Shown: positions 1-60,756, counted from the whole stretch's first letter. The stretch: 61,975 bases of DNA, filler included, from 7 parts of 7 records of this genome joined end to end with filler, not necessarily neighbours in it, one strand, 5' to 3'. Notes: generated from the letters alone by a model not told the origin. Program-made: numbers and translations.

Positions 1-15
1 ATATTTTTTTAGCGT

Positions 16-168
16 TCATACTGCCCCCAATCAATACCTTTGCTTTCTAACTTTTTAGCAAGTTCCACCTTAGTGTGTTTGGATAATTGATCATTAACGC
101 TTGTTCTAATTTTTGAATTATTGCTAATTGCTGTACTGGATAGTAAAAAAGCAACCAGATGGTTGCTA
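16..168 (-). repeat. Cassette-boundary repeat, copy 1 (terminator plus start-less coding 3' end ...KGIDWGQYER*)
   Basis: Aligns with 1184-1337 (about 22 mismatches in the 117-nt coding part, near-identical over the hairpin part) and with 2998-3100. Confidence 0.95.
144..168 (-). terminator. Rho-independent terminator downstream of 233..1108
   Basis: Minus strand AGCAACC-ATCT-GGTTGCT followed by T-run. Confidence 0.85.
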
Positions 169-232
169 TAATCTTTTATATTAAACTCAAATGAGTTTAG
201 TGTATTCTCGTCATGCTTATGTTGATATAGTT

Positions 233-1108
233 TTATTTAATGAAAAAATTTTTTACCGTGTAAGAGTTGCGTATATAACTATTAATAATTAAATACCCAA
301 ACACATTGATTGAAGTCGTAATCAAGAAAGCTAATACAAGAATAATTTTTTCGCTAAAGCCTAGCATAGTAATAATGCTAATGATTCCTAGAATGAAATT
401 TATAATTGCATAAGAAAGAGTGTATATTATTATTCTGTCTGGAGCAAGTTTAGATCGTTTAAAAAACAAATAGAATATATATATTTGGAATAAAACCAAA
501 ATCGAAACTAAAGCAATCTGAATAAATCCGTAATCAGCATTTATCGATCGTCCTATATATATAATCATAGTAATTAATTGATAGACAATGACACCTAGAA
601 GTAGTAGTAAATAACCTTTAATTTTCTTTCCATGTGAGTTCTCTTCCAAGTCGCTACTCCAATTCATTATTTGTTGAATAATCATCTGGTTGTCGATCTC
701 AATTTCAGTAAGGTTATCGAGTGTTTGTAATATGCTCTGGTATACTTGTATATTCTCTTCACTGCTATAACAAATTATTTTAACTTTTTTGTATTTAGAA
801 GAAATTTCCAGAAATTCATTAACAGTAATTTCTGTAATATCGGAAATCTTGATGCGCTTTGGAAAAAGGTTACCTAATAGCAATTCATCATCACTTATAT
901 ATATTACATTTTTAACCTTTCTTATAAGTATAACGTAGAATGGAGCTAAGTATAAGAGAATAAGTAATGTTGCGAAAATATATAACCCAAAAGTCATATG
1001 ACTGCCCACGCCCGCCAATGGAATTGTAAAGTTTATTAACAGCAAGATAAACAAATATTTAAGATAAGTGGGTATTTTTCTATCTCTATATATTAAGAAT
1101 TTTTGCAC
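233..1108 (-). CDS. Hypothetical multi-pass membrane protein (cassette cargo)
   Basis: 291-aa ORF, about 6 hydrophobic segments, RBS AAGGGAG, own extended -10 TGaTATTAT at 1143-1151. Confidence 0.8.
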   Translation of the reverse strand: MQKFLIYRDRKIPTYLKYLFILLLINFTIPLAGVGSHMTFGLYIFATLLILLYLAPFYVILIRKVKNVIYISDDELLLGNLFPKRIKISDITEITVNEFLEISSKYKKVKIICYSSEENIQVYQSILQTLDNLTEIEIDNQMIIQQIMNWSSDLEENSHGKKIKGYLLLLLGVIVYQLITMIIYIGRSINADYGFIQIALVSILVLFQIYIFYLFFKRSKLAPDRIIIYTLSYAIINFILGIISIITMLGFSEKIILVLAFLITTSINVFGYLIINSYIRNSYTVKNFFIK

Positions 1109-1183
1109 AAATAGACTCCCTTATGTGGTGATTTATTGTAAAATAATATCATATTTTACTAAGAAAAGAAACAATTAAAACTC

Positions 1184-1337
1184 TCATACTGTCCCCAATC
1201 AATGCCTTTGCTCTCAAGCTTTTTAGCAAGTTCAACTTTAGCTTGTTTGGAAAGTTCATCGTTTGCGATTGTCCTAACTTTTGCATCATTGCAAATTGCT
1301 GTACTGGATAATAAAAAAAGCAACCAGATGGTTGCTA
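1184..1337 (-). repeat. Cassette-boundary repeat, copy 2
   Basis: Direct repeat of 16-168; encodes AICNDAKVRTIANDELSKQAKVELAKKLESKGIDWGQYE with no start codon. Confidence 0.95.
1312..1337 (-). terminator. Rho-independent terminator, same stem as in copy 1
   Basis: AGCAACC-ATCT-GGTTGCT plus T-run on minus strand. Confidence 0.85.
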
Positions 1338-1396
1338 CAGATCGTCAATAAAGGGAACAAACGCAAAACTTTTACCAATTTAAGAGGTTAGTTTTA

Positions 1397-1541
1397 CTTA
1401 CATCGTCAAAAAATTCTTTTGTTCCTTTCCAATACGATTCTCTGTATCCTTTGCTGAAAAGTCATAGCCTAATTCATTTTTGTTAATTTAAGCTATATCT
1501 TGGTAATCATTTAAACATATACTTCTAACTAATACTTCTAT
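1397..1541 (-). pseudogene. Truncated GNAT acetyltransferase remnant
   Basis: Translates IEVLVRSICLNDYQDIA*INKNELGYDFSAKDTENRI..., a GNAT-like N-terminus (IR...D..DI...ELGY) with an in-frame stop and no C-terminus. Confidence 0.6.
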
Positions 1542-1543
1542 TC

Positions 1544-2098
1544 TTAGTTTTCTTTTTTCACATATTCTGATTTCAGCATTCTATACTCAACTCTATCTTT
1601 TAATCTTCCGTTATGAAATATAAATTCTTTAAAATCAGCTTCTTTTATCATATTGCATTTTCTCATCACTTTTTCTGATGAGATATTTTCTTTAAAGCAT
1701 CCTGTAGAAATGCGATATACGTCATTTTCCTCAAAGGCAAAACGAATGATTTCTCTAACTGCCTCTGTCGTATAACCTTTATTGTGAAATTTTTCTAAAA
1801 TGAAATATCCTAAATGAACAAATTTACCAAGTTCTAAAAACTTTGTAACCGTATAGCCAGCACTTCCGATAAAGTTGCCTGTAGATTTTTCTTCAATGAC
1901 AAAAAAGTACCGCTCTCTTTTAGGGTTTTCAATCTGAGAAATTGTTTGTCTTAAGTTTTCTCTTGTTTCAGAAATATCTTTTGTCTGGATATCCTGTAAA
2001 TAATACATTAACTTTTCGTCAGACATGAGTTTGTGCATATTATCTATATCTGAAAGTTTTGGTTCTCTAATTATTAATTGATCTGTTTTTATAATCAA
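1544..2098 (-). CDS. GNAT N-acetyltransferase, RimJ/RimL type
   Basis: IKTDQLIIRE start, LGYFILEKFHNKGYTTEAV acetyl-CoA motif, ENISSEKVMRKCNM. Confidence 0.9.
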   Translation of the reverse strand: MIIKTDQLIIREPKLSDIDNMHKLMSDEKLMYYLQDIQTKDISETRENLRQTISQIENPKRERYFFVIEEKSTGNFIGSAGYTVTKFLELGKFVHLGYFILEKFHNKGYTTEAVREIIRFAFEENDVYRISTGCFKENISSEKVMRKCNMIKEADFKEFIFHNGRLKDRVEYRMLKSEYVKKEN

Positions 2099-2858
2099 AT
2101 TTTCGCTTATTCCTTTTTGAATTTTTAATAGTAGTGATTACGACGGAAGCTATAATTATAGCTATTGCAGTAACGATAGTGCTTTCGAGGTTCATATTTT
2201 CATAACTGTAATTTAAGTATTTGCTATCTCCTAAGAAAGTTAATATTGCATGTGGTAGGTTTACAATATAGGCTGTTATAATGCTATTAGTGATTCTATA
2301 ACTGATTCCGAATAAAATTCCTACCAAGAATAACGTAAGCAATGCTTCAAAATCAAGCCCGATAAAACTTTGTGCTGAATGATAAAGTGAAAAACATAAG
2401 CTTGATAACAGAATAGCTATTACTACACCAAATTGTTTTTCAAACCTAGAAAGTAAAATCCCTCTGAAAAAGATTTCTTCAAATAAAGTTGAAAATATCA
2501 TAGCAATAACAATATATATAATTTGACTGGTAGGTACTTGTGGTAATGTCAGAGTGAAGAATCGACTGCCGCATGTAACGATTGCAATTACTAAACCTAT
2601 AATAATTTCTTTTGGTACAATCGTTGTATTTAATCCAATGCTTCGTAAGGTGAGGTTTTTTCTTATCAACATAATATAGAGGGGTATCCATATACAAAAA
2701 ACTATGGCAAATATGCCATGATAGAATAAATAGAAAAGCCAAGTACCTAAAAAAATATCAGCTATATAATTTGCAGTCCAGCAAACAATCATCAAACCAA
2801 ATAATAGAATTGATTCGGTATTTTTTTGGAAGTGTATTAGTCTATTCGCTTTTAACAT
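2067..2858 (-). CDS. CPBP (CAAX/Abi) intramembrane metalloprotease
   Basis: FEEIFFRG and FSLYH motifs, multi-TM; extended -10 TGaTATAAT at 2889-2897. Confidence 0.9.
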   Translation of the reverse strand: MLKANRLIHFQKNTESILLFGLMIVCWTANYIADIFLGTWLFYLFYHGIFAIVFCIWIPLYIMLIRKNLTLRSIGLNTTIVPKEIIIGLVIAIVTCGSRFFTLTLPQVPTSQIIYIVIAMIFSTLFEEIFFRGILLSRFEKQFGVVIAILLSSLCFSLYHSAQSFIGLDFEALLTLFLVGILFGISYRITNSIITAYIVNLPHAILTFLGDSKYLNYSYENMNLESTIVTAIAIIIASVVITTIKNSKRNKRKFDYKNRSINN

Positions 2859-2997
2859 ATTACATCCTTATTGTATTATTTGCCATTAATTATATCATCT
2901 GTAAGATGTGAAGTCATCATCTATCTGCGCATCTCCATGATAAATATATTCTTTTAATATTTTTTCAATACCCCTATCTTTCATATAAACCTACTTT

Positions 2998-3105
2998 TCA
3001 TACTGCCCCCAATCAATCCCCCTATTCTCAAGCTTCTTAGTAAGTTCAATCTGTACTTGCTTGGAAAGTTCATCGTTTGCGATTGTTCTAATTTTTTATT
3101 GCTTA
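2998..3105 (-). repeat. Cassette-boundary repeat, copy 3 (coding part only, no terminator)
   Basis: Encodes KIRTIANDELSKQVQIELTKKLENRGIDWGQYEK*; similarity to copies 1 and 2 is lost near 3100-3108. Confidence 0.9.
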
Positions 3106-3252
3106 ATAGTTCGTTCGTACATAAGGCTCTTTTGTATTGATAATCTTCTGCAAGCTTAAAAATAGAATAGGCAAAAGTGAATAATTATAGGGACACTTGG
3201 CTGTATTATTGGTAAAAACTGAGTAAATTTGACAATTAACGAGCAAAAAGAG

Positions 3253-3289
3253 TTGCCCTATACCCTATGATTTGGTACAATCATACGGG
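3253..3289 (+). promoter_or_regulatory. Putative sigma-A promoter of the GT2 operon with overlapping inverted repeat
   Basis: TTGCCC(3253)-17 bp-TACAAT(3276) with TG extension; TATGATT/AATCATA inverted repeat flanks the -10; ATG at 3290. Confidence 0.5.
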
Positions 3290-5124
3290 ATGGCTGATAA
3301 AAGAGAATTAGAAAAAACACCAAAAAAATTATACGAGAGAAGATTGCTTCCCCACGCCCCTGATCCTGTAAAAAAAGAGACGGACGTGAAAGGCGTGGTA
3401 ACGTAAGATACGCATACAAACTTGGTAAATACACCAATGATTATTTTGACTTTGGTGTAAGATATGATACTGAATTTCCTGTCGAGATTATAAAATTTGA
3501 TGGTAAAAATATAAGATGCGTAGCGGAGAATATTTCTTCTAGTGGTATGCTGATAAAGGCATATGTAAAAGACTATAAGCGAATGAAAAACTCGTCACAA
3601 TTATCGCTTGTTTTTGAGGTGCCAGAAGGTTCGATTACCGAAAAATACCAGCGAAAAATCCGAATAAAAGCTTCGGTGAAAAGATGTTTTGTAAGAGAAG
3701 AAGCTAAAGGATTGGTCTATATTGCGCTTGAATTTAAAAACAACCTAAATGAGCATTTAAAAAAGAGTAAATGGATTTCGGATATTACCCTTTCAAGTAT
3801 AATGCTGGGTTTGATTGGATTATTAATCATCCTGTTGCGGGTTGATAGTATCATCTATTTTAAGAGCAGGCCGCTGGTTTATGCCTATAGTATTTTAACA
3901 GCAATATATCTGACAACTCGATATTTGTTTGCAATTTTTTATAGGAATGTCCCAATTGACCCAGAATACACACCCGGGGTTTCTATTGTTATTCCATGTT
4001 TTAATGAGGAAAAATATATTCACAAAACCATAACGAGCTGTCTTGATCAGAATTATCCGTTAGATAAAATTGAAGTTATTGTTGTTGATGACTGTTCAAC
4101 AGATCAGTCTGTTAGAGCGATTCAAAAATTCTATGATCATTTGATTGAAAATTTGGACGACGGCTATGATATAAAAAATCGCTTAAAATGCGTGTTTCTA
4201 AAAACGAATCAAGGGAAAAGATGTGCGCTGGCGGAAGGTATGAAAGTTGCGACGCATGATTTTATTACTTTTGTTGATTCGGATAGTTTTTTAGAACCAC
4301 TGGCAATACGGTTTTTGGTACAGCCATTTGTTGACCCTAAAATTGGTGCGGTAACAGGCAGAACGGATGTTGAGAATGCTTGGACAAACTGGATTACGAA
4401 GATGCAGGGTGTTAGATATTATATTGCCTTTAGGATATTAAAAGCAGCGGAATCCGTTTTTGATGCAGTTACCTGTTTGTCAGGTCCAATTGCTTGCTAT
4501 AGAAGAGATTTGCTAGAAAAGCATGTTGACGACTGGTTGAATCAGAAGTTTTTTGGTGTGCAAGCAACTTTTGGGGATGACCGTAGTATGACAAATTTTA
4601 TATTAAAACACAACCGAACGGTTTATCAGGACGCTGCGATTTGTAAAACAGTTGTTCCTTCCGAGATGAAACCGTTTTTAAAACAGCAGATGCGCTGGAA
4701 AAGATCTTGGCTAAGAGAGACGCTTCGTGCCGGTGGATTTATGTGGCGCAAAGAACCCTTTCAAGCACTTTCATTCTATGCTGGGTTTATTGTTCCGCTT
4801 TTGGCACCGTTTATTGTTATTTATAATCTAGTGTATATTCCTTTGACAAAAAACTTGTTCCCTGTTGTTTTTCTGACAGGTATATTGCTGATGAGCCTTT
4901 TGATGAGTGTTGTATACATGTTGATTAAAAGAAGTCGGATATGGTTATATGGGCTTGTGTTCTGTTTGTTTTATGAGTGTGTCCTTTTATGGCAGATGCC
5001 AATTGCTATATTGACATTTTGGAAAAAGACATGGGGCACAAGAGATACAAAAGAAGATGTGGAAGCTGAAAATAAACGCAAGGACTTTAAGAAAAGATTT
5101 TTTTATAAAGATGCTCGTAGTTAA
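3290..5124 (+). CDS. PilZ-domain-fused processive GT2 polysaccharide synthase (HAS/NodC/IcaA-like); frameshift at A7 run 3370-3376
   Basis: DDCS, DSDS, GDDR, QQMRW motifs and TM helices; frame upstream of 3547 reads RERRGNVRY...ENISSSGM (PilZ RxxxR and NxSxxG); one extra A joins it to ATG 3290. Confidence 0.85.
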
Positions 5125-5148
5125 AAACTGCGAAAAGAGGAAGAACTA

Positions 5149-6786
5149 TTGTCATTTGATTTAAAAAAGAAAAACAGAAATAAAGTTATAAGAACGATTA
5201 TTCAGATATGTATGCTGTTAAGCGTTGCATTGTTTTTTGTTAAAGTCACCTTTTTCCCTAAAAAATACGAAGAAAGCGATTCGGCAAACTGGAAGCAAAG
5301 TGACGGGTTTATTGCGCTATCATATGTTGGTGTTGCAAGAACATCAAACTACCAGCTTGTTTCTAAGGATCAGTTGTCGCAGCATTTATCTGCTTTAAAA
5401 AAAGCCGGCTATGTGACAATTGGCGTAGATGATATAGTTGCGTTTTATGAAAAAGGGCAAAAACTTCCTGATAAAGCGTTGTATATTATGTTTGAAGATG
5501 GAAGAAAAGATTCTATTATTTTTGCTGAGAAATTACTGAAAGAAAACAATTACAAAGCTACCATGATGAACTATGCATTTAATGTGGTAAATGATGATGA
5601 TGCTTTTGTTAAGAAAAAGGATATGTTGAACCTTGAAAAGAATACCTTTTGGGAAAATGGATCGAATGGATATCGCTTTTCTTATATCAATGTTAGAGAA
5701 ACAAAAGAGTTGACAGATGCAGATAATGACGGAGATTATAACGAGGAATATTTTGAGTATAATCATTACTTGATGGATTATTTAAGAGACCGTGATGGGA
5801 TTCCTGTTGAAGACTTAAAGGAAATGCGCGAAAGAATCAACTGGGATTATCATAAGATGAACAGTGTCTATACAAATGCCATAGGCTATGTGCCTAGTGT
5901 TTATGCAATTATGCATGCTGGTGGTCTTTTTAACAAAGTGGATTCGGATGTTGAAAAAGTAAATTTAGAAAATATATATCAAATGTTTGATGTTATGTTC
6001 AATCAGGAAGGATCTTGTTATAATAGTGCGCATCATAGTATCTATAATTTAACGAGAATGCAAGTGCAGCCAGATTGGAGTGTCAATCGACTCATTATGG
6101 AGATTGAGAACTACACAGACTTAGGAGTACCGTTTGTTGTTGGAGAAGATGCGGAATCTCGTCTGGAGGTAGTAAACGGCGTCGCTATGATTGATGAACA
6201 GGATATTGTATTAACTTCGGAATATGATGAAAAAGCATTGGTTAGATTAAAAGGAACGGATAATTGGCAGAACCTGAGAGTTCATGCCGGGATTGCAGGC
6301 AGAGAACAGGGCTATCAAAAAATTCTTTTGAGAAAAACCGATAAGACATATGTTGAAATTGATATAAATCAATATAAACTAAAGATAAGCGAAATGGCTA
6401 ATGAAAAAGGGATAACAGTACTCTATGATGATTTTTTACCAGGTGGTGAAAAAATGCAGCAAAATGATGACACGTTTGATTTAGAACGGGTTGATCAGAG
6501 CACAGAATATGCTGAAGCCGCAGATCAAAGCGATACATTTGAACTCAGAAAAAGAACAATGGCATCTGGGCTAGAACAAATTGTTTGGGATTTGGATATT
6601 GAGCTTGTGGGTAGTAAATTGGAAATCACAGTCAATAACATTTCCAATAAAAAAATTGTAGTGAATATAGATGAGCAGATTGAGGCTGGAAGTATCATGC
6701 TGAAAAGCTACAGTGATGAAGGCGGTTATGATGGGATATTTAACGACTTGAACGTTGAACTGATACTGGAAGAAGAGGGATCATGA
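5149..6786 (+). CDS. Membrane-anchored polysaccharide deacetylase-like protein (IcaB/PgaB-like, atypical motif)
   Basis: N-terminal TM; ALKKAGYVTI...KLPDKALYIMFEDG CE4-like motif; C-terminal beta-rich domain. Confidence 0.75.
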   Translation: MSFDLKKKNRNKVIRTIIQICMLLSVALFFVKVTFFPKKYEESDSANWKQSDGFIALSYVGVARTSNYQLVSKDQLSQHLSALKKAGYVTIGVDDIVAFYEKGQKLPDKALYIMFEDGRKDSIIFAEKLLKENNYKATMMNYAFNVVNDDDAFVKKKDMLNLEKNTFWENGSNGYRFSYINVRETKELTDADNDGDYNEEYFEYNHYLMDYLRDRDGIPVEDLKEMRERINWDYHKMNSVYTNAIGYVPSVYAIMHAGGLFNKVDSDVEKVNLENIYQMFDVMFNQEGSCYNSAHHSIYNLTRMQVQPDWSVNRLIMEIENYTDLGVPFVVGEDAESRLEVVNGVAMIDEQDIVLTSEYDEKALVRLKGTDNWQNLRVHAGIAGREQGYQKILLRKTDKTYVEIDINQYKLKISEMANEKGITVLYDDFLPGGEKMQQNDDTFDLERVDQSTEYAEAADQSDTFELRKRTMASGLEQIVWDLDIELVGSKLEITVNNISNKKIVVNIDEQIEAGSIMLKSYSDEGGYDGIFNDLNVELILEEEGS

Positions 6787-6787
6787 C

Positions 6788-7918
6788 ATGCGCATATGTA
6801 AGCTGATGATCATAGCGATGATAGCCTCTCTTTCCTTTGTGTTTTTAAATAGCTGTAGTACTAATATGATTGATGAAGCAATAGTAGAGAATGAAAGCAT
6901 AGAGATTGAAGAAGCAATAGTAGAGATTGATGGTAGTGAGGATGAAGCTATTGAGGTTTTTAGAGAACCTGAAGAAATCGGTGCTTATCTAGATTTTTGG
7001 TGTGTTTATTGGGATTATGCCGAAGGCTTATATGAGATGGACGACCTGCATGCTTTTGCACAGGCATATGATTTGCCTAAGGACATTCAATTTTGTTCAG
7101 CAGATATGTTTGCATTAGATTTTTACAGCGATATGAGCTTACACTTTTCTAATAAAGTTGATTTGAATCGATTTAAAACGGATAAAGAGAAATATATAAC
7201 GATTGTAAACGATGTTATAGAGCCTGATGGAAAAAATATTATTAAAGATGGAGAAATCATTACCAAAATTATGCTTTCCGATGAAAACAGGAAAAAGCAT
7301 ATGGAAGATATACTGACTTTTATGATGTCGCATGATTTTGACGGCGTTACACTGGATTATGAGAAAGTGGAAAGTCAAGCTTGGGACGCATATGCAACGT
7401 TTATTGATGAGCTAGGTCAGCTTTTGAAAAAGAACGGATATAAGTTAAGAGTGGTACTAGAAACTAGATGTCCGGTAGAAAAAATAGATTTTCCACAAGG
7501 ATATCAATATATTTTTATGTGTTACAATTTATATGGTTGGCACAGTGGACCTGGGCCAAAAGCGGATTATGCATATATTGAGCAGACGTGTGAACGTTTG
7601 AAAAATAATTTTGATGATGGTGCAATCGCCTTTTCGCTTGGTGGATTTGATTGGTACGGTGATGAAATTAATACATTAACGTTTACTCAAGCGCAAGAGC
7701 TTATTAAAACATATCAAGTAGAGATAAAAAGAGATGCCCAAAGTGAGGTTGCATATTTTGAATATCAGGATAGCGGCGTTAATCATACAGTTTGGTATTG
7801 TGATGGACAGACGTTAAACGGATGGATTGAGTCGGCAAAGAGCAAAGGTATATACAGTATTAGCATTTGGAGATTAGGCGGGAATTTGGTTATTGGAGAA
7901 GAGCATGAAGAAAAGTAG
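6788..7918 (+). CDS. GH18 family glycoside hydrolase lipoprotein
   Basis: Lipobox FLNSC, FDGVTLDYE catalytic motif, FMCYN, IWRLGG. Confidence 0.85.
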   Translation: MRICKLMIIAMIASLSFVFLNSCSTNMIDEAIVENESIEIEEAIVEIDGSEDEAIEVFREPEEIGAYLDFWCVYWDYAEGLYEMDDLHAFAQAYDLPKDIQFCSADMFALDFYSDMSLHFSNKVDLNRFKTDKEKYITIVNDVIEPDGKNIIKDGEIITKIMLSDENRKKHMEDILTFMMSHDFDGVTLDYEKVESQAWDAYATFIDELGQLLKKNGYKLRVVLETRCPVEKIDFPQGYQYIFMCYNLYGWHSGPGPKADYAYIEQTCERLKNNFDDGAIAFSLGGFDWYGDEINTLTFTQAQELIKTYQVEIKRDAQSEVAYFEYQDSGVNHTVWYCDGQTLNGWIESAKSKGIYSISIWRLGGNLVIGEEHEEK

Positions 7919-9350
7919 AAAAGGTTTGTATATTGGTTTAGCAGGTGTTTTTTTGCTAATGATGACAGGATGTGAAACAGAAGAAGCATATCCGATTCAA
8001 GAAAAGATAGGTGTATTTGAGGCGCAGACCGTATCGTACGATTCAATAGAGCTAAATAGCAAAGGTGAAAAAGCCGATGTAATAAAACATGTTATTACTG
8101 ATGAAAAAATCATGGCTTTGACGATAAAAGGAGTAGGTAACGAAGAAAGCTTGACTAAGCTTTTAGATGAACTTGATAAAAACGATGTAAAAGCTACTTT
8201 TTTTATAAAAGGTGAGCATGCAATCAAACAACCAGAATTGGTTAAAATGATTTTTGACCGCAATCATGAGATTGGAAATGCAACATTAAATAATATTGAT
8301 TTATCCGACAAGGGAAAAGACGTTGTATTAAATGAAATAGGCAAGTCAAAAGACTTGCTACAAAATATCACTGGTATTGTGCCAGAATACCTTAGCGTCG
8401 GTCACGGAAACACAACAGAAGATATCCAGTTGGCAGCTGCAGCATGCGGACACGATTATGTTATAGGCTTTAGTATTGTTCCACAAAAAGATGATGCAAA
8501 TGATGCTCAAAGCGTTTCGGATTTAGTTTTTAAACTAAAGCGTAGAGGAGATATCGTGCTTTTGAATATGGATCACTTTGAAAACACACCAGAGATGATT
8601 ACTCCGATAGTAGAAAAATTGGGCGAAAGAAACTTCAAACTTGGTCCAGTAAGCTCAATTATACCAGCATATGAGGAGCGAAAAGCCAACAAATTTGTAC
8701 CAGATAAAAACAGACACAAACAGGATTCGGAATATAATCTCATCGAAAGAGTAGAAGATATTGGTCCGTATGTTTGTTTGACGTTGGATGATTGGGCGAC
8801 TGACGATACGACAGATGATATGATGGATTTACTTGATTCATATGATGTTAAAGCGACGTTTTTTGTAAGGGCAAACGGTGTTGAACTTAACCCAAGCCTT
8901 GCTTACGCGATACACCAAAGAGGATTTGAAATTGCTAACCATACATATGCGCATGTTGATTTGAGAACCATGACCGAAGAAGAAATAAAAGAGGATTTAA
9001 CAAAAGCCCACGATATTATTGCAGATGCGATAAATACGGAACCTAAAAGATATCTTCGTCCGCCAAGAGGAGAAATCGACGAAAAAGTGTTGCAGGCAAG
9101 TGCCGAGTGTAACTTTGAAGATGTTATTATGTACGGTGTAAATGGGCATGATTATATCGAAACTAGGACAGCACAAGATATTTATGAATCGGTTATGGAA
9201 GATATTGGACCTGGACATTTTATTCTTTTGCATATATTAGATGGCAAACAGACAATCAATGCTCTGCCTATGATTATCGAAAGCGTTAGGGAGATGGGAT
9301 TGGAATTTGTGACAGTTGGGCAAATGATCGGGGACGATCCGATTGAGTGA
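7905..9350 (+). CDS. Lipoprotein with two NodB (CE4) deacetylase domains
   Basis: Lipobox MMTGC; domain 2 has LTLDD, HTYAH, RPPRG, LLH; domain 1 degenerate (LTIKG, NATLNN). Confidence 0.9.
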   Translation: MKKSRKGLYIGLAGVFLLMMTGCETEEAYPIQEKIGVFEAQTVSYDSIELNSKGEKADVIKHVITDEKIMALTIKGVGNEESLTKLLDELDKNDVKATFFIKGEHAIKQPELVKMIFDRNHEIGNATLNNIDLSDKGKDVVLNEIGKSKDLLQNITGIVPEYLSVGHGNTTEDIQLAAAACGHDYVIGFSIVPQKDDANDAQSVSDLVFKLKRRGDIVLLNMDHFENTPEMITPIVEKLGERNFKLGPVSSIIPAYEERKANKFVPDKNRHKQDSEYNLIERVEDIGPYVCLTLDDWATDDTTDDMMDLLDSYDVKATFFVRANGVELNPSLAYAIHQRGFEIANHTYAHVDLRTMTEEEIKEDLTKAHDIIADAINTEPKRYLRPPRGEIDEKVLQASAECNFEDVIMYGVNGHDYIETRTAQDIYESVMEDIGPGHFILLHILDGKQTINALPMIIESVREMGLEFVTVGQMIGDDPIE

Positions 9351-15419: not shown

Positions 15420-16283
15420 TTAAACAGGTACATATGAAGTTATTTCTTTGTGTATTTTTTGCGCAATATTTAAACTATTAAGTATATAAATATGAACGCC
15501 ATCAACGCCTTGCTTTAGTAAATCGATTATTTGATTTGTAGCATATTCAATACCCGCCTTGCGAAGAGATTGGGGGTTATCTTCGTATTTGTCGATAATA
15601 TAAATCAGCTTTTTTGGAAGGTTTACACCGCTAAGAGAAGACATGCGAAGAATTTGTTTTTTACTTATTATAGGCATTATACCTGCTTGCAAAGGAACAT
15701 CAATACCTTCAGATATTAATCTGTTTTTAAAACTATAAAAATACTCGTTATCGAAAAACATTTGAGTAATTAGATGATCAGTACCTGCATGAACCTTTGT
15801 TTTTAAATTTTCTATATCAATTTCAAAATTACTGGCTTCATTATGACTTTCTGGGTAACATGCACCAATAATGTTTAAGTTGCTGTTTTCCTTTATAAAT
15901 GAAACAAGGTCGCTTGCGTATCTAAAAGTTCCATTTGGGGTTACATTTTGTGTTGAATCTCCACGAAGAGCAAGGATATTTTCTATATTGCTTTTTTTTA
16001 ATGCTTCAATAAAATCAAGAGCTTGTTGCTTTGATAAATTAATACACGGAAGATGAGCTACACTCTCGATCTTGTGTTGGTTTTTAATTTGTGAGGCAAT
16101 GGATGTCGTTTTTCTGCTGTTCTCGCTACCGCCTGCACCAAAGGTTACACTGATAAAACTTGGGTTCAATGCCGTTAAGCCACTAAGAGTGGCATCTATA
16201 GTGCTTGGCTGAGCTTCTATTTTGGGTGGAAAAACCTCATAAGATATCACGGGTTTTTTGTTAAAAAACTTAATTGTTTTCAT
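15420..16283 (-). CDS. metF: 5,10-methylenetetrahydrofolate reductase
   Basis: [35 protein letters not shown]. Confidence 0.95.
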
Positions 16284-17202
16284 CAGTAAGCTCTCTCCTT
16301 ATAGTTTGCGCTGCAATTACCAAGTTTTTAAGGCTTGGTATGGTTTCTTCTTTGCCTCTTGTCTTTAGTCCACAATCTGGGTTCACCCATAACTTATCTG
16401 TTGGAATAGTTTCCAAGATATTGGTTAACACATTTTTAAGCTCATCGACACTAGGTATTCTTGGAGAATGAATATCATATATTCCTGGACCTATATCAGT
16501 TTTAAAATCGTTATCTTTTATTGACTGTAAAATAGTTAAATCTGACCTAGAAGCTTCAAAAGAAATAACATCTGCGTCCATATCATCAATTTCACAAATA
16601 ATATCATCAAATTCGCTGTAACACATGTGCGTGTGTATCTGTGTTTTAGCACTAACTGCACTATGTGTAAGCCTAAAAGCTGGAATAGTCCAATCAAGAT
16701 ATTCACTATTCCAATCGGATTTTCTTAGCGGGAGTTTTTCTCTTAAAGCTGCTTCATCAATCTGAATAATACGGATGCCATTCGATTCAAGATCTAGGAC
16801 TTCTTCGCGAATAGCAAGAGCAATCTGTAAGGCAGATTCTTTTAAAGAAATATCCTCACGCGGAAAGGACCAATTGAGAATTGTTATGGGACCTGTCAAC
16901 ATACCTTTAACTGGCCGTTGCGTTTGCTTTTGTGCATATACAGAATAGAATATCGTAATTGGTGCAGATCGTTTTACATCTCCCCAAATAATCGGTGGTT
17001 TTACGCATCTTGTACCATAAGATTGCACCCACGCACTTTTAGTAAATATATACCCATAAAGGTTTTCGCCAAAATACTCAACCATGTCACTTCTTTCAAA
17101 TTCTCCATGAACCAAGACATCAAGACCAATAGCTTCTTGCAAAGATAAACAATCGTCAATCTGATTTTTGATAAAAGCTTCGTATTGATCGCTGCTTATT
17201 TT
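16270..17202 (-). CDS. metE: Cobalamin-independent methionine synthase, C-terminal part (cut by contig end)
   Basis: [43 protein letters not shown]. Confidence 0.95.
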
Positions 17203-17302
17203 NNNNNNNNNNNNNNNNNNNNNNNNNNNNNNNNNNNNNNNNNNNNTTAATTAATTAANNNNNNNNNNNNNNNNNNNNNNNNNNNNNNNNNNNNNNNNNN
17301 NN
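17203..17302. other. Artificial contig spacer
   Basis: N-run, TTAATTAATTAA, N-run; composition changes across it. Confidence 0.98.
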
Positions 17303-17954
17303 GATCCAGTCCGCTGAAGGGTTCATCCATCAACAGGATCTCCGGGTCATTTGATAACGCACGTGCCAGACCAACCCTCTGCTGCATACCGCCGCTCAAG
17401 GCTCCGGGATAATAATCTTCCCAGCCTTTGAGTCCCACAGTCTCCAGAGTCTGCATGGCCTTTGCGTACCGTTCTCCACGGGGCATGCCCTTTATCTTCA
17501 GTCCGTAGGCAGCATTATCCAGGACAGTCATATGGGGAAGAAGTCCGTAGTGCTGGAAAACCATCCCGTAGGTGCTTTTCCTAAAATCCAGGAGCTTCTC
17601 CTGGCTCATCTTTGTTACATTCTTCCCGTTAATCTCAATAGATCCGGCGGTAGGATTAACCAGCCGGATGAGGTTCCGAATCAGCGTCGATTTCCCGCTT
17701 CCCGAAAGCCCCATAAGGATATAGAACTCACCCTTTTTAATTTCCAGGTTGACATTCCGCATCCCTATGACGCATCCGGTTTTTTTCTGGATTTCCTCTT
17801 TGGATTTACCCCGAAATTCCTTTTTCGTTACCCTTTTCGGATCACGTCCGAAAACCTTCCATAAATCTTTAATAACTACCTGAGGCGGTACAACCGCCTC
17901 AGGTGTCTCATTAACCGGTTCCGCAGAATCGGTTTTCATGATTTCTTCAGACAT
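17303..17954 (-). CDS. proV: Glycine betaine/proline ABC transporter ATPase (truncated by contig end)
   Basis: MGLSGSGKST, LSGGMQQRVGLARAL, LLMDEPFS. Confidence 0.9.
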
Positions 17955-17963
17955 CGATAACCC

Positions 17964-18914
17964 TTATTCAGCGAGAGCAGCCTTGACCCGTGCAGCGACC
18001 TCATCGGAGACCCACGCAGTCCAGACATCTTCCTTGTTTTTCAGGAACCATTCGGCAGCCTGGGTTGTATCCCAGTCTTCCGAGTCCATCATGGCAAGAA
18101 ACTCATTATTATCATCAACAGTGGTTGAGTATTTCTTAAGGAACTCGACGACATCGGGAGCCTTTTCCAGCATATCCTTGTTCACAAGGATGTTGACGTC
18201 CGCTTTATCATACTCGGAGCCGGCAAGGCGTACCATATCCAGCTTACCCAGAACAGCCGTGGGGGCCCAGTAATACCCAATCCAGGGTTCCCTCTTCTCA
18301 AAAGCACCAACCATTGTTCCAGCAAGAGCGGAGTTGGATCCGGCAATTCCCAGGTTGAATGTATCTTCCAGTCCGTTTTCAGCAAAAATCTTCTCTGAAG
18401 TCTCCATCTGAGTCCAGCCTGCAACACCACCATAAACAACACCCTTGTCAGGATCTTCCGGATCTTTGAAAAGATGGGCATACTTCGGCAGATCGGTAAC
18501 ATGCTTCAGGTCGGGTGCCAGAGCATCTGCGCCTTCTACCAGATAACGGGGAATCCACCAGCCCTGAGGACCATCGGGCAGATTCTCACCGAGATCAACG
18601 ATATCACCGGATGTCGTATACTTGTCATATACATCCCTGAAATTGGAGTGCCAGGACTCCATATCCACATCGACATCTCCCATGGCAACTCCCTGGATAA
18701 TCGGAAGTGTGTCACCCGTCATAAAGTCGGCTTTGTAGCCGTCCATGCCGTTTTCAATAATAAAAGCGGCAATTCGGTTATGCACCTGGACACTGTCCCA
18801 TGATACATCACCGAAAACGATGGTTGTTACATCACCTTCCTGATCTCCACCGGCTGTCAGCTGGAAAGAAAGAACAACGGCAAGGATTAATCCCAATACG
18901 ATTTTTCGTCTCAT
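17964..18914 (-). CDS. proX: Glycine betaine ABC transporter substrate-binding protein (ProX/OpuAC family)
   Basis: Signal peptide ending AGGDQE, SWDSVQVHN, GYYWAPT; RBS GAGGAG before ATG 18914. Confidence 0.85.
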   Translation of the reverse strand: MRRKIVLGLILAVVLSFQLTAGGDQEGDVTTIVFGDVSWDSVQVHNRIAAFIIENGMDGYKADFMTGDTLPIIQGVAMGDVDVDMESWHSNFRDVYDKYTTSGDIVDLGENLPDGPQGWWIPRYLVEGADALAPDLKHVTDLPKYAHLFKDPEDPDKGVVYGGVAGWTQMETSEKIFAENGLEDTFNLGIAGSNSALAGTMVGAFEKREPWIGYYWAPTAVLGKLDMVRLAGSEYDKADVNILVNKDMLEKAPDVVEFLKKYSTTVDDNNEFLAMMDSEDWDTTQAAEWFLKNKEDVWTAWVSDEVAARVKAALAE

Positions 18915-18937
18915 TTTTTTCTCCTCTGTAAATATTA

Positions 18938-18971
18938 TTAGAACCCTAACTTTATAGAGCTTTATTGTCAA
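18938..18971 (-). promoter_or_regulatory. Putative proX promoter with overlapping palindrome
   Basis: TTGACA-17-TAGGGT on minus strand; TTAG-N4-CTAA (18938-18949) overlaps the -10. Confidence 0.5.
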
Positions 18972-19151
18972 GCTGATCAACCTTGATTTTTCGTACAATA
19001 ACTATCTTAAAACTTTCAAATCCTTAATATACAATGATTTATCTATTATAATTTAACAAAAATCTAATTTATTATTTCAATTCAAATATTTAGTATTATT
19101 ACATGTTTACTTACTTTACAAAGGATTTCTAACAATGTTATTATCAACCCT

Positions 19152-19694
19152 ATGGAAAATCAGGATATGGCCGATGAGGTTGTCGGCACAATAAGACAGA
19201 TAATCAGGGCAGTTGATCTGCAGTCAAAAAAACTGACCAAAGCCTACGGTCTGACAGGACCCCAGCTTATTGTCCTTAAGGAGATCAAAAGGTCCGCAGA
19301 CAAACCTATCTCCGAAATAGCCCGCAATGTGAGTCTATCCCAGGCCACAGTTACTTCTATTCTGGACAGACTGGAACATCAGGAGTTTGCCAAACGCACT
19401 CGTTCCATTACGGATAAAAGGAAGGTCACCCTCTCGTTGACAGAAAAAGCCGAAGCTATTCTTGCGGCCAAGCCTTCCCTTCTTCAGGATGACTTTACCA
19501 GACGGTTCGATAAGCTCGATGGCTGGGAAAAGACTATGCTCCTCTCAAGCCTTCAGAGACTGGCTACGATGATGAACGCCGAAAACCTTGAACCGGTCCC
19601 TGTCCTTGTCAGCGGTCCCATCGAAGCCTCTTCCGGTGCGGTTACGCGATACCTGAATGATTCTGGCTCCGAAACAAAGGATGGTCATTTTTGA
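19152..19694 (+). CDS. MarR-family regulator, EctR/CosR-like
   Basis: IRQIIRAVDLQSKKL...GLTGPQL, SQATVTSILDRLE, DKRKV; divergent from proX. Confidence 0.85.
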   Translation: MENQDMADEVVGTIRQIIRAVDLQSKKLTKAYGLTGPQLIVLKEIKRSADKPISEIARNVSLSQATVTSILDRLEHQEFAKRTRSITDKRKVTLSLTEKAEAILAAKPSLLQDDFTRRFDKLDGWEKTMLLSSLQRLATMMNAENLEPVPVLVSGPIEASSGAVTRYLNDSGSETKDGHF

Positions 19695-19732
19695 AAATAC
19701 TGGTATGAAATTTATAAATCCAGGAGGTTTTT

Positions 19733-20302
19733 ATGTTTGAAGTACCTATCGCCCGATCGGATATTCATGTCCACCTTTCTTCAGACCACATCGAGGCCCT
19801 CTTCGGAGAGGGGCATAAGCTTACCAATGTTCGGGATCTGACCCTCCCGGGGCAGTATGCCTGCGCCGAACAACTGACAATCACCGGCCCCGAAGGTTCA
19901 ATCGACGGCGTGGTTGTAGTAGGTCCGGCCAGAAAGAAAACCCAGGTTGAAATCTCCCTTACCAACGGCATAAGCCTTGGAATAGATCCGCCGATACGAA
20001 AATCAGGGGATTTAGCCGGCTCTCCGGGCTGTATTATCACCGGTCCCTCGGGAAGTGTAACCATCGGCGAAGGTGTTATCGCCGCCAAACGTCACATCCA
20101 TATGCATACCGATCAGGCCCGTGAATGGGGCCTTTCCAACGGTCAGGAAGTCAGGGTGAAGATCCCCGGGCCCCGGGCCCTTATCTTCGACGAAGTTTTT
20201 TTAAGGGTCGGTGACGATCAGGCCCTTGAAATGCACGTGGATTTTGACGAAGGCCACGCGGCGGGAATCAAGGATTTCCAGCCGGTGGAACTCATCGTCT
20301 AA
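19733..20302 (+). CDS. pduL: PduL-type phosphotransacylase
   Basis: HVHLS, PGQYA, AKRHIHM, EMHVDFDEG. Confidence 0.9.
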   Translation: MFEVPIARSDIHVHLSSDHIEALFGEGHKLTNVRDLTLPGQYACAEQLTITGPEGSIDGVVVVGPARKKTQVEISLTNGISLGIDPPIRKSGDLAGSPGCIITGPSGSVTIGEGVIAAKRHIHMHTDQAREWGLSNGQEVRVKIPGPRALIFDEVFLRVGDDQALEMHVDFDEGHAAGIKDFQPVELIV

Positions 20303-20312
20303 AAACCTTCCC

Positions 20313-21674
20313 CTACTTCAGATATCCCAGCCACCTGTTCTGCCGGTCGATCATATGATCCACCAGGGCAGGTACACCCGTACAGTCATGGACGACGGGA
20401 TTAACAAGGAGCGCCTGAACAGCGGCATCACGACTCTCCTCAAGCACGGCCTGGGCGGTCAGATCGTAGGTTCCGCAGTAGTTTCTTAAGAGGGCGGCGA
20501 ATCCCCGGGGATAATCCGGGAAAGAAAGCCCCTTTATACCATTTGTCCCGACAACGGCGGGAACTTCTACGGCAATGTCTGACGGAAGACCGGGAATATA
20601 CCCGTCGTTCAGGATATTAACCGCCAGTTCCTCATGGCCCGAATCGGTAGCCAGGCCTTCAATTATGTAGACCAGTCTCTCCCGAATTTCATCTACAATC
20701 TCCGCCTCATCAGCAGCCGCCAGAGCGATCTTGTAATAGCTGTAGAAATCGAGGATTCCCTTGTGGTCGGCGACCTTATGGGCCCAGGGGATGTACTCTC
20801 CCAGATGACTGTCTACCGTAATGGGAAAGAGGTGAAAATTATCCATAATGAATTTAAAGAGGTAATGGTCACCCCAGGGTCTGACGGGAATCCCCGAATC
20901 CAGAAGTATCCGATCCTGTGCCCCCTCGGTGTGATGGATAATGCCTGTTTCCCTGTAGTAGGTCAGAATCTCCGAATAACCCGGTTCCTTTTCGAAGAAA
21001 GCAGGAGCCCTCTCCATAACATCCCCGTAGGCGTCGGCTCCGGAATCTTTATACTTCGCCTCAAGCATCACGCTGAAGTGGTTCAGCCCCGCCGCCCGAT
21101 AGAAGATATTATCCAGGGGAGTGTCGAGGATAGTCGGCAGGTTCCGGGCCAGAGAGGCAATCTCATGACACATTCCCACAAATTTCAAATCCGGAAACTT
21201 CCGCTTCACCGTGGTGGTGATGGCCGTCATTGGGTTTGAATAGCAGAAGACGTACGGATCGTTTGCCAGCTCTATAACATCCTGACAGATCTCAAGGATG
21301 GGTGGAATAATACGCAACGCGTGAAAGAGACCTCCTGGGCCTCCGTTTTCTCCATAGACCTGATCGATCCCGAACTGATGGGGAACTGTCCAGTCCATAT
21401 CCCAGAGTTCAAACCGATCACCGACCTCGATAGAGATTATGACGTGGTCGGCATTTTTCACGGCCTCTCTTCTGTCGGTTGTAGAGGTGATCGTAAAAGA
21501 CAGCCCTTTTTCTACCGCATACTCCCTGCCCTTCTTTGCCGTCAATTCCAGTGTTTCGGGGTTTATATCCATCAGGCAAATCTCGGATCCCGCAAGCACC
21601 TTGCTCTGAAAGATATCGCTCATCATTCCCAAACCGAACTGGGCGCTTCCCGCCCCGATTAATACTATCTTCAT
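20313..21674 (-). CDS. GH4 NAD-dependent alpha-galactosidase/alpha-glucosidase
   Basis: IGAGSAQF, GENGGPGG, YSNPM, GMCHE, AGLNHF. Confidence 0.9.
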   Translation of the reverse strand: MKIVLIGAGSAQFGLGMMSDIFQSKVLAGSEICLMDINPETLELTAKKGREYAVEKGLSFTITSTTDRREAVKNADHVIISIEVGDRFELWDMDWTVPHQFGIDQVYGENGGPGGLFHALRIIPPILEICQDVIELANDPYVFCYSNPMTAITTTVKRKFPDLKFVGMCHEIASLARNLPTILDTPLDNIFYRAAGLNHFSVMLEAKYKDSGADAYGDVMERAPAFFEKEPGYSEILTYYRETGIIHHTEGAQDRILLDSGIPVRPWGDHYLFKFIMDNFHLFPITVDSHLGEYIPWAHKVADHKGILDFYSYYKIALAAADEAEIVDEIRERLVYIIEGLATDSGHEELAVNILNDGYIPGLPSDIAVEVPAVVGTNGIKGLSFPDYPRGFAALLRNYCGTYDLTAQAVLEESRDAAVQALLVNPVVHDCTGVPALVDHMIDRQNRWLGYLK

Positions 21675-21714
21675 TTTCTTCTCCTGTGAAAACCGGTCTT
21701 TGCTGTGACGGAAT

Positions 21715-22806
21715 TCATGTCGTTTCTCTTTTCAAAAGTACCGGAGCCAACAGCTCCTGCACACATTTTTCATCATCACCTTTCTTTTCAAGGAGCCAGA
21801 CTATTCTTGCCGTGGCCCTTTCCGCAATCTCTTCCCGGGGCTGATGGATTGTCGTTATCCCCGGTTCGGTCAGAGTTCCTATAGGTGAATCATCAAAGCC
21901 GATGATCTTCACATCTGCAGGGACCCGGATACCAGCCTCCAGGCATCCGGTTAAAGCGCCGAAGGCCATCAGATCCGAATGGAAAAAGAGACCGTCGCCG
22001 GGCATCAGCTTTCCATGCGGACTCTCCCCGGCCCGCTCCAATATCATTTTTCGGGCCGATAAAAAAGTTCCGTCTATGAACACATCCTCGACCGCCGCTT
22101 CAGGGACTCCCAGAAACTCAAGTGCCTTATGAAAGCCGGCGGACCGGGCGGGGAACTCATTCAGAAACTCCGGCTCGTCCCTGCCGCTCCCGGCTCCTGC
22201 CCTGTCCTTACCGCAATCGGGGATGGTCACATTGAAAAACCTGCGGCACCCCTTTTCCCTAAGATGCCGGGCCGCAATTTTTCCTCCCAGCCTGTTGTCG
22301 GTGTAGAAGGCATCCAGGATCTCGGATATGAACCCTCCGGGCCGCAGGTGCACCTGGACCACCGGCATCTCCCACTTTCTTATCAGCTTATAATCCTCCG
22401 ACGGAATCTCACCATGGAGCACAAGAAACCCGTCTACCTTGTTCTGCCGGATCAGCCGCTCGATATTGGACTCGCCGGTATCCGGGTGACGGGCCTCTAC
22501 CAGTATCCCGTCCAGCCGACGGCTCTCCAGTTTTTTTCTCAAGTCCATAAAAAGCCGGTTTATGTAGAGGGATGAGTTAAAATCCTCCATTCCGGCAGGG
22601 AAAACAATCCCGATGACACTGGTCTTTCTTCGGCTTAAAGACCGGGCGTTTGAGTTGAACTGAAAATTATATTCCCGGGCCAGAGCTTTTATACGCTCTC
22701 TGGTGGCCTCGGTAACCCGGGGACTGTCATTCAACGCCCGGGAGACTGTGGAGTGGTTCACCCCGGCGATTTCGGCCAAATCTTTGACGGTCATATGCTT
22801 TTTCAC
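21715..22806 (-). CDS. LacI-family regulator
   Basis: TVKDLAEIAGVNHSTVSRALN, IGFDD, TTIHQP; likely GTG start at 22806 with RBS GAGGA. Confidence 0.92.
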   Translation of the reverse strand: MKKHMTVKDLAEIAGVNHSTVSRALNDSPRVTEATRERIKALAREYNFQFNSNARSLSRRKTSVIGIVFPAGMEDFNSSLYINRLFMDLRKKLESRRLDGILVEARHPDTGESNIERLIRQNKVDGFLVLHGEIPSEDYKLIRKWEMPVVQVHLRPGGFISEILDAFYTDNRLGGKIAARHLREKGCRRFFNVTIPDCGKDRAGAGSGRDEPEFLNEFPARSAGFHKALEFLGVPEAAVEDVFIDGTFLSARKMILERAGESPHGKLMPGDGLFFHSDLMAFGALTGCLEAGIRVPADVKIIGFDDSPIGTLTEPGITTIHQPREEIAERATARIVWLLEKKGDDEKCVQELLAPVLLKRETT

Positions 22807-22838
22807 AGTTTTTCCTCGTTCTATGAAGCTGAAACACA

Positions 22839-22893
22839 ATACACACGTGTGTATCAATACTTTTATGTTAAGCCGAAAAATCACATTTGTCAA
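22839..22893 (-). promoter_or_regulatory. Promoter and LacI-type operator of the lacI-GH4 operon
   Basis: TTGACA-17-TAACAT on minus strand; perfect palindrome ATACACACGTGTGTAT (22839-22854) with central CG just downstream of +1. Confidence 0.75.
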
Positions 22894-22984
22894 TCGCTTT
22901 AACATCCTCCCCAAAATACTGAATCAGAACCACAACCCGAGGAGTATTAATAGTTAAAAGCTGGTATAATACAAGGAGGATTGG

Positions 22985-35700: not shown

Positions 35701-35800
35701 NNNNNNNNNNNNNNNNNNNNNNNNNNNNNNNNNNNNNNNNNNNNTTAATTAATTAANNNNNNNNNNNNNNNNNNNNNNNNNNNNNNNNNNNNNNNNNNNN
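35701..35800. other. Artificial contig spacer
   Basis: N-run with TTAATTAATTAA. Confidence 0.98.
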
Positions 35801-36618: not shown

Positions 36619-36629
36619 TATTAATTAAA

Positions 36630-37058: not shown

Positions 37059-37066
37059 GAATGGAT

Positions 37067-37094
37067 AACCGGGGGCATACCACTCCCGGTTTTT
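37067..37094 (+). terminator. Hairpin/terminator
   Basis: AACCGGG...CCCGGTT then T-run. Confidence 0.6.
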
Positions 37095-37096
37095 AA

Positions 37097-38691: not shown

Positions 38692-38747
38692 GTTTTTGGG
38701 AATTTGGAATGTGAAACATCGTTAAAGTAATTTTTAAAACTATTCTT

Positions 38748-40249: not shown

Positions 40250-40368
40250 TAGTAGAGTTGCGCTTTGAATTTATTAAGCTCAAATCTGCTAACATACTTC
40301 AGTCATATATTTGATTGGGGTATTTTTATGAGAAGTTTTAGCTAATTTGTTAGATAAAGGCTATTAAT

Positions 40369-57122: not shown

Positions 57123-57190
57123 TAAAGAATTAAAAAGAAAACAAACTCCATTATAACAGAAAAGAGAACTTTTTAAAAAAGGAAACGGCA

Positions 57191-60736: not shown

Positions 60737-60756
60737 TTCTGGAGCAACTAAAAGCT

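Follow-up and report, generated by a model that had tools for sequence, protein, structure and literature searches.

We analysed a stretch of metagenomic DNA of 61,975 bases, referred to as the window and forming the basis of all repeat counts unless stated otherwise, whose left end holds a short array of accessory genes on the minus strand, separated by three direct copies of one repeat. By homology to complete proteins, the repeat is the last 35–50 codons of a relaxase gene of the MobL/MobP3 type, and comparison of the copies with each other and with intact relaxase genes places their origin in different relaxase alleles rather than in a recent local duplication. We propose that small cargo modules were inserted serially at the 3′ end of a relaxase gene, in the style of tandem accretion, and that the body of the relaxase gene was lost later, a reading to which we assign a probability of roughly 0.45. 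An earlier inspection of the DNA without database searches (the sequence-only reading) had described a tandem array of unrelated accessory modules whose borders are formed by a recurring unit of terminator and gene 3′ end. This description is supported by the repeats and by the annotation of the cargo; the three direct repeats separating unrelated minus-strand genes were borne out by repeat search and shuffle tests, and the abrupt end of similarity at the end of the unit by alignments. The proposed analogy to integrons did not hold, as discussed below.

The repeated unit and its parent gene

The repeat search returned one family of three direct copies (16–150, 1184–1318 and 2998–3132), of which the second and third are 84% and 63% identical to the first, together with a separate exact 24-nt repeat at 145–168 and 1314–1337. 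On the minus strand, copy 1 (168..9) consists of a hairpin block (168..145) followed by about 50 relaxase-derived codons, copy 2 (1337..1180) opens with an identical hairpin block (1337..1314) and likewise continues into relaxase-derived codons, and copy 3 (3111..2991, start approximate) holds 34 intact relaxase-derived codons (3095..2994) and no hairpin. The 23-mer GGNATTGATTGGGGNCAGTATGA matches the window three times at up to three mismatches, always on the minus strand and at a repeat copy, while the hairpin sequence TAGCAACCATCTGGTTGCTTTTTT occurs exactly twice, with no further occurrence even at three mismatches; none of 100 shuffles contained a match to either. Similarity ends abruptly after CAGTATGA in 3/3 copies, and its 5′ edge is equally abrupt at TAGCAACC in copies 1 and 2. 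The G+C content of the array is 29%, compared to about 36% in the adjoining DNA.

All three copies keep one minus-strand reading frame, which ends in ...ELAKKLESKGIDWGQYE and a stop codon. The read of copy 1 ends GIDWGQYER with a TAA at 11..9 and is devoid of in-frame ATG, GTG or TTG. The T-run of copy 2 is longer by one T, so that its frame is offset from that of copy 1, and the read runs 7 codons beyond ...GQYE (last codon 1164..1162) to a TAG at 1161..1159. Copy 3 ends GIDWGQYEK with a TAG at 2993..2991 and displays about 15 nt of further homology upstream of its intact codons, carrying indels and an in-frame stop, with homology beginning near 3111.

The parent gene of the repeat was identified from the translated reads. 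The 44-residue read of copy 2 is 77% identical, over 98% of the query, to the extreme C-terminus of the proteins P0001 (418 aa) and P0002 (420 aa), each of which has a weak match to the MobA/VirD2 nuclease and the second of which passes the Pfam MobL family PF18555 at 50.3 bits (cut-off 28.5). With the 61-residue read of copy 1, a HMMER scan of 1.84 billion representatives gave four hits at E up to 0.001, all to the same domain, three of them at the protein C-terminus and one, in P0005, internal (residues 165–210); phmmer alignments of this read start only at residue 12–14, i.e. at HL/VAFLLSS. A further 8 short and 20 long proteins came from profile searches, with PF18555 present in 17 of the 20 long ones. 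A tblastn search of plasmids with P0002 retrieved 40 records, all below 60% identity (about 24%) and annotated as MobP3 relaxases, 37 of the 40 from Bacillus. Over its C-terminal 44–50 residues, the parent gene shares membership of PF18555 with the MOBL relaxases, a family which the available part of PMC5313138 defines on pLS20, and it differs from them in that the nearest plasmid relaxases, MobP3 proteins of Bacillus thuringiensis plasmids, reach only that low identity and that in the window just the last 35–50 codons survive. No open reading frame (ORF) of the window contains the N-terminal nuclease domain with catalytic tyrosine and HUH motif by which a functional relaxase is recognised. 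The sequence-only reading had taken the unit for an anonymous recombination site joined to a gene 3′ end; the gene end stands, and homology to the MobL-type relaxase tail removes its anonymity. As a separate observation, P0005 (331 aa, on a JGI contig of 7340 nt) consists of the C-terminal half of a relaxase with an unrelated 121-residue stretch right after ...GIDWG, which by eye resembles the end of a conjugation ATPase.

The homology to relaxases runs in register as far as the codons VAFLLS, which correspond to IAFA[I/L]S in real relaxases and at the same time constitute the right arm of the hairpin and its T-run, and the hairpin is therefore located at the point of truncation. Here, a left part of 13 nt common to copies 1 and 2 base-pairs with the right arm GGTTGCT plus T-run (codons VAFL), which is homologous to the relaxase, and the two form a terminator-like palindrome at the junction. 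On the minus strand this hairpin features a 7-bp stem with 4 G–C pairs and the T-run, and its RNA is predicted to fold at −10.4 and −10.3 kcal/mol, with z about −2.3. A near-identical cassette end of about 37 bp, as initially described, could not be confirmed; it is a 24-nt hairpin block with weak similarity upstream of TAGCAACC. No hairpin was found at copy 3, where an alignment of the upstream 84 nt to the hairpin region gave scores reached by 83 and 224 of 500 shuffles. We therefore rejected the idea that copy 3 carries a decayed hairpin, this alignment not being significant.

As a short (about 150 nt), repeated unit with a palindrome at one end, the repeat could at first sight be a scattered element resembling a miniature inverted-repeat transposable element, or the end of an insertion sequence. 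We give this explanation next to no credence: only three copies exist in 62 kb, all adjoining and in the same orientation, and the scattering which the sequence-only reading had named as speaking against an array is not seen in the window. The unit is moreover coding-derived and homologous to relaxase C-termini, the repeat search found no terminal inverted repeats at it, and neither blastn of positions 1–3300 against plasmid and phage collections nor searches of viral contigs by pattern and by relaxase alignment gave a match.

Divergence of the copies and the cargo between them

Within the shared last 33 codons, the differences between the copies fall on codon positions one, two and three as 5, 2, 12, as 4, 3, 10 and as 7, 5, 13 for the three copy pairs, a third-position excess with binomial p = 0.007, 0.027 and 0.042. 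Real relaxase genes are likewise third-position biased among themselves, for example 2, 2, 14 between the related loci L001 and L002. The identity of copy 2 is 84% with the real relaxase gene of L001, compared to 81% with copy 1 and 83% with copy 3. Since the bias is that of coding sequence and the distance between copies is similar to the distance between copy and relaxase, the copies diverged at a time when they were still coding for relaxase. Independent acquisition, as suggested from the outset, fits this origin from different alleles better than local duplication does.

The preserved frame and the third-position bias could also be expected if the repeat were a working unit, i.e. a small protein made of the relaxase C-terminal tail, or a terminator or leader ahead of each accessory gene. 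ORFs of 50 residues with this domain have been called elsewhere, namely P0011 (NCBI) and P0012 (on a 17.6-kb JGI contig), and the hairpin is terminator-like. However, no start codon or ribosome-binding site is conserved ahead of the read in the three copies: copy 1 has no in-frame ATG, GTG or TTG after the last stop, in copy 2 the sole candidate is a TTG within the stem, and the frame of copy 3 begins behind a stop and has no start codon. The methionine of P0011 and P0012 is the native internal methionine of that relaxase lineage (...LIMNIAFMLS in P0022, P0023 and P0025), and both may be truncated or contig-edge calls. Rfam returned a single chance hit in positions 1–3600 (E 0.14), which is not relevant. 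We consequently regard a working unit as highly improbable and the copies as remnants rather than free-standing small genes, since a common start codon and ribosome-binding site are missing. Even if the array should reflect decay alone, it would explain a class of short “hypothetical proteins” as relaxase tails (P0006–P0012).

Copies 1 and 2 have their starting nucleotide in common and share 24 identical bases, which constitutes one common truncation junction. Their 5′ block departs from the LSRG motif, which is carried by 5/5 aligned relaxase loci and appears as SRG or SRA in the 16 longer proteins compared, except P0030. This block is therefore considered to have evolved free of relaxase constraint, and the units are therefore mosaics, in which a common junction block is followed by allele-specific tails.

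The identical junction and the near-identical 5′ block departing from the relaxase consensus would also be in agreement with local duplication of a truncated relaxase remnant plus hairpin, followed by gene conversion or recombination with incoming relaxase genes and by exchange of the cargo. It is in line with such a course that the variable part is the part still resembling functional relaxases and that AATGATGCA, with which the 5′ block of copy 2 ends on its 3′ side, is the same as in L001. Several events would be needed, however, namely a duplication, two or three conversions and a replacement of the cargo; RecA-type recombination is generally known to work poorly on homology of 70–85% spanning about 100 nt; and the flanking cargo shares nothing. 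Taken together, this renders local duplication rather improbable.

Between copies 3 and 2 lies cargo A with two genes on the minus strand, encoding a CPBP/Rce1-like intramembrane protease of 263 aa (2858..2067; PF02517, E 7.6e-17) and a GNAT acetyltransferase of 184 aa (2098..1544; PF13302, E 1.7e-25). Cargo B, between copies 2 and 1, is a 291-aa membrane protein with a GTG start (1108..233, minus strand), to which Pfam, NCBIfam and PADLOC assigned no family and for which an Atlas search gave a best value of 0.85 (lead level 0.9), with weak PH-domain-like leads at 0.76. PADLOC matched none of the three cargo proteins, and neither the repeat search nor alignments revealed anything in common between the cargo on either side of the repeats. 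A separate extended −10 promoter for each unit had been postulated; it is partly confirmed, by the promoter scan for cargo A and by eye alone for cargo B. The promoter-like site of cargo A (2917..2889, minus strand) combines ATGACT, a spacing of 17 nt and TATAAT with TG at 10/12 matches, in a scan that showed no overall enrichment of such sites (20 found vs 19.3 in shuffles), and cargo B is preceded by the extended −10-like box TGATATTAT and an AAGGGAG ribosome-binding site. The short broken reading frame after the GNAT gene (1401..1538, minus strand) had been regarded as the remnant of a further GNAT gene, which we could not substantiate, as no Pfam family matched at E up to 1 with the stop read as X.

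Conjugative relatives and the proposed course of insertion

As related loci, nine metagenome contigs with the relaxase tail were retrieved, those named here being L001–L008. In L001, L003 and L007 the relaxase is full-length and two small ORFs stand ahead of it, resembling in this respect the two auxiliary relaxosome genes which precede the relaxase gene on pLS20 according to the available part of PMC5675868. Downstream of the relaxase, the relatives carry an ORF of 216–218 aa without family and then the coupling protein of a type IV secretion system (PF02534, E 2e-60; PF12696); L001 additionally has a sortase gene upstream. What differs between the loci is the stretch directly after the relaxase stop codon: in L002, L006 and L007 nothing is inserted and the next gene begins 14 nt on, L001 and L008 hold MazE and PemK (MazEF), L005 an isochorismatase, and L003 and L004 an insert of 308 nt with a small membrane ORF. 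In this family of conjugative elements, the site directly after the relaxase stop codon is thus a hot spot for cargo. NCBI contigs of Mb size contain some members of the family, P0023 and P0025 sharing one of 3.07 Mb, and at least some are therefore chromosomal elements; P0018, P0022, P0027 and P0028 are likewise encoded on large contigs.

The stop-codon region itself occurs in duplicate at two places. In the window, the orphan 13-mer TATGAAAGATAGG (2973..2985, minus strand) repeats the relaxase stop-codon region at a distance of 4 nt beyond copy 3; a search with this 13-mer gave two window matches, both at the end of copy 3, where 1.94 would be expected across the shuffled window. In L005, the orphan 13-mer AATGAAAGGCAGG of the same region (788–800) flanks the isochorismatase module, and the 13-nt motif doubles there as the next gene's ribosome-binding site, with which the last relaxase codons overlap. 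Both orphan 13-mers fit repeated events at the stop codon. We also considered whether the tail of the L005 cargo is a decayed long copy of the relaxase 3′ end, which was rejected, since the alignment is not significant and only the 13–15-nt motif aligns.

Decay is apparent within the family as well. At 1–140 of L002, the relaxase lacks its 5′ part up to about codon −120, contains a frameshift in an A-run and follows immediately on the end of an unrelated membrane-protein ORF; at 1251–1370, the coupling-protein ORF opens with a phosphofructokinase-like piece (PF00365, residues 4–40), so that L002 is a decayed mosaic element. The truncation, frameshift and phosphofructokinase piece of L002 and the fusion in P0005 demonstrate that decay and mosaic junctions do occur, and they lend some weight to the view that several whole conjugative or mobilizable elements integrated in tandem and were each reduced by deletion to the relaxase 3′ end plus cargo, with no insertion of cassettes at all. 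The origin of the copies from different alleles agrees with this, as does the position of cargo directly after the relaxase in the relatives, which makes relaxase end plus cargo a natural neighbourhood. On the other hand, two deletions, independent of each other, would need to have stopped at one and the same nucleotide and made the same 24-nt hairpin block, and no other element gene could be traced between the copies, tblastx of L001–L008 against the window matching only at the three repeats. We therefore consider integration of whole elements in tandem unlikely.

For the favoured serial insertion of modules, the following sequence of steps can be put forward. The source would be a conjugative element similar to L001–L008, with two small genes, the relaxase, the 216–218-aa gene and the coupling protein. 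Modules consisting of their own promoter, one or more cargo genes and a terminator would insert after the relaxase stop codon, one by one, and every insertion would leave one more copy of the relaxase 3′ end, creating a direct repeat around each module. Two layouts are compatible with this, as the cassette might either bring a replacement tail or carry the tail as its attachment arm. A later deletion would have removed the relaxase body and everything upstream, cutting into copy 3, and the outcome would be a chromosomal relic beside a polysaccharide operon. With a recurrent junction combined with different alleles, site-specific recombination would be the simplest source of this pattern. The order of these events, the site-specificity of insertion and a recombinase encoded elsewhere are what we infer.

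Several observations speak against this course. No recombinase, relaxase body or other conjugation gene is present in the window, no intact relaxase lies ahead of copy 3, and the stretch 3111–3546 is free of relaxase coding sequence; that no intact target gene marks the array's proximal end is ascribed to the later deletion. The nine related contigs revealed no second array, among L001–L008 no second long copy of the relaxase 3′ end was found, and their cargo is flanked by no repeat or by just 13 nt, the duplicate in L005 being explicable by selection alone, on the relaxase stop and on the ribosome-binding site of the next gene. The length of the repeat consequently varies (0, 13 or 110–155 nt), unlike what one dedicated integrase would produce, and the different truncation point in L002 reveals that random truncation does occur in this relaxase family. 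The excess identity of the 5′ block (38/40 between copies 1 and 2 over aligned columns 1–40, then 95/120; Fisher p 0.026) is drawn from two copies with a boundary chosen after seeing the data, and an ungapped comparison over 42 nt gives 81% vs 81%, owing to a one-base indel. Finally, the window covers nothing left of position 1, beyond copy 1, and the whole case is one metagenome locus of low depth.

A more far-reaching variant, which we regard as doubtful, would be an integron-like capture platform within a conjugative element, where recombinase-less cassettes insert and stack in the 3′ end of the MobL relaxase gene and owe their movement in trans to a host-element enzyme. In each cassette, a relaxase C-terminal tail serving as replacement would then be combined with a promoter, cargo and a terminator doubling as palindromic recombination site, while the tail of the relaxase gene would act as ‘attI’ and each capture would re-write the relaxase C-terminus. 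Considering in addition that the relaxase itself might have made an oriT-like junction, we compared the window hairpin with putative origin-of-transfer (oriT) regions, which are located upstream of the small genes in L001, L003 and L007 and contain repeats of their own, ATCGGATTTT motifs and CGAATCGC..GCGTTTCG. The hairpin has no likeness to these regions, nor to the nic-site inverted repeat of pLS20 as given in the available part of PMC5313138.

Compared with known systems, the array appears to work most like the accretion arrays of cis-mobilizable elements (CIMEs) of the ICESt1/ICESt3 type, which we take as the closest model, and not like an integron. That integrative elements accumulate in tandem at a target gene's 3′ end and decay to cis-mobilizable elements is described in the available part of PMC5704250. 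Both arrangements have direct repeats which hold the 3′ end of one gene and bound stacked accessory modules, in both the repeats stem from different incoming copies, and the modules of the window, as those of CIMEs, are free of integration or transfer genes of their own. The window differs in that its repeated end derives from the relaxase gene of a conjugative element instead of a tRNA or housekeeping gene, that the intact target gene is missing, and that the modules measure only 1.0–1.7 kb and contain no integrase remnant. In the CIME model, excision or integration would proceed by site-specific recombination between the repeats. According to the available part of the same article (PMC5704250), some integrative and mobilizable elements (IMEs) integrate within conserved genes that belong to integrative and conjugative elements (ICEs), for example traG of Tn5252-type ICEs, or at the oriT nic site. 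They have in common with the array that a mobile cargo unit lands in a conserved conjugation gene of another element, but they code for a serine or tyrosine recombinase of their own and as a rule disrupt the target, whereas the window has no recombinase and the gene end is duplicated. The genomic islands at the ssrA gene of Dehalococcoides reportedly stack in tandem as well, each having a repeated segment of the gene's 3′ end as its border, and are said to carry integrases. They correspond to the array in their integration at one conserved gene and differ in the RNA-gene target and in the integrases ascribed to them. Site-specific integration of these islands at ssrA, a single-copy conserved tmRNA gene, is described in the available part of PMC3146451.

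With integrons, the array shares the order of unrelated accessory genes, a recurring and partly palindromic unit, and the absence of a recombinase inside the cassettes. The window, however, is without IntI or attI and its border is a remnant of a coding gene, and whereas integron cassettes are mostly promoterless and depend on a common promoter Pc, the cargo here has its own −10 box and is followed by a terminator-like hairpin; it is not an integron, to which the sequence-only reading had drawn the analogy. By eye, the relaxase-derived stretch contains one palindrome of 7 or 8 bp, with no paired R″–L″/L′–R′ as in the attC layout. Xer dif/pdif sites span 28 bp in the order XerC, 6 nt, XerD; the palindrome reads by eye as 7-4-7 or 8-2-8 and not as the 11-6-11 of the dif/pdif consensus.

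Conjugative elements of the Firmicutes type are known to have cargo hot spots, while the entry route of small promoter-bearing modules is mostly unknown. The present locus displays a hot spot that coincides with the stop codon of a relaxase gene of the MobL type, with the tail of the gene itself as repeated border of stacked modules; compared to known accretion, the target would be the tail of the relaxase gene and the modules very small and without recombinase. If insertion is site-specific, it would constitute a new route of cargo capture inside conjugative elements, orphan relaxase tails would be a simple search handle for cargo in metagenomes, and the relaxase C-terminal tail, with its strongly conserved GIDWGQYER end, would be swapped at each capture. 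In a narrow literature search, we came across no publication describing that the 3′ end of a relaxase gene serves as insertion site or is duplicated.

Mobility genes, further copies and the remainder of the window

None of the 52 window ORFs of at least 100 aa matched a recombinase, integrase, transposase or relaxase family in NCBIfam, nor did the 10 ORFs that were also compared with Pfam, in agreement with the initial impression that no integrase or transposase is visible. In sequencing run X1 (0.78 of sampled words), the one run found to contain the sequence and probably the source sample, where the contigs have a depth of about 4, no joints or circular junctions were detected, which is no argument against excision; the sister run X2 gave no match to the locus. 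The Logan contigs of run X1 agree with the window without differences; they bridge copy 3 on both sides (2869–3234) and copy 2 into the promoter and the 5′ part of the gene of cargo B (892–1352), while the join between copy 2 and the end of the GNAT cassette is bridged by just 15 nt. A stretch of 70 nt upstream of the copy 2 hairpin (1348–1417) is also present, with unlike flanks, in a run X1 contig at about 70x, compared to about 4x for the locus, and is thus common to a more abundant genome or element. Among GTDB species representatives, alignment of the 44-residue read gave 35 pattern stretches and alignment of five full relaxases gave 148, none of which was confirmed in either case.

Apart from the repeats, the window consists of ordinary chromosome, with nrdD, metF, murG, RNase R, prfB, acpS and others. 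Adjoining the array, a plus-strand operon (3547–9350) encodes a NodC/PgaC-like glycosyltransferase, a PgaB-like protein, a GH18-like protein and a double polysaccharide deacetylase, and by this gene content it likely serves a poly-N-acetylglucosamine or chitin-like exopolysaccharide. Within 16270–22914, the G+C content rises from about 0.35 to 0.44–0.53 at 18–22.5 kb, over genes for an alpha-galactosidase and a LacI-type regulator; the metE ORF there comprises only the C-terminal 290 aa (profile positions 465–748 of 750) and the neighbouring proV-like ORF only its N-terminal part, so that this region may be a contig join or a foreign island. The prfB gene (34649–35748) is split across two overlapping frames, which we take to be the known programmed +1 frameshift of release factor 2. 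Multihaem c-type cytochromes, a cytochrome b of the thiosulfate-reductase type and a large CcsB-type biogenesis protein are encoded at 36606–43380. At the right end (54240–61805), where the G+C content is about 0.42, a TonB-dependent/SusC-like receptor, an ORF of 1181 aa without family and a gene of the PorV/PorQ family are found, and TonB-dependent receptor and PorV-type genes are unusual beside a sporulation-type deacetylase and MobL remnants.

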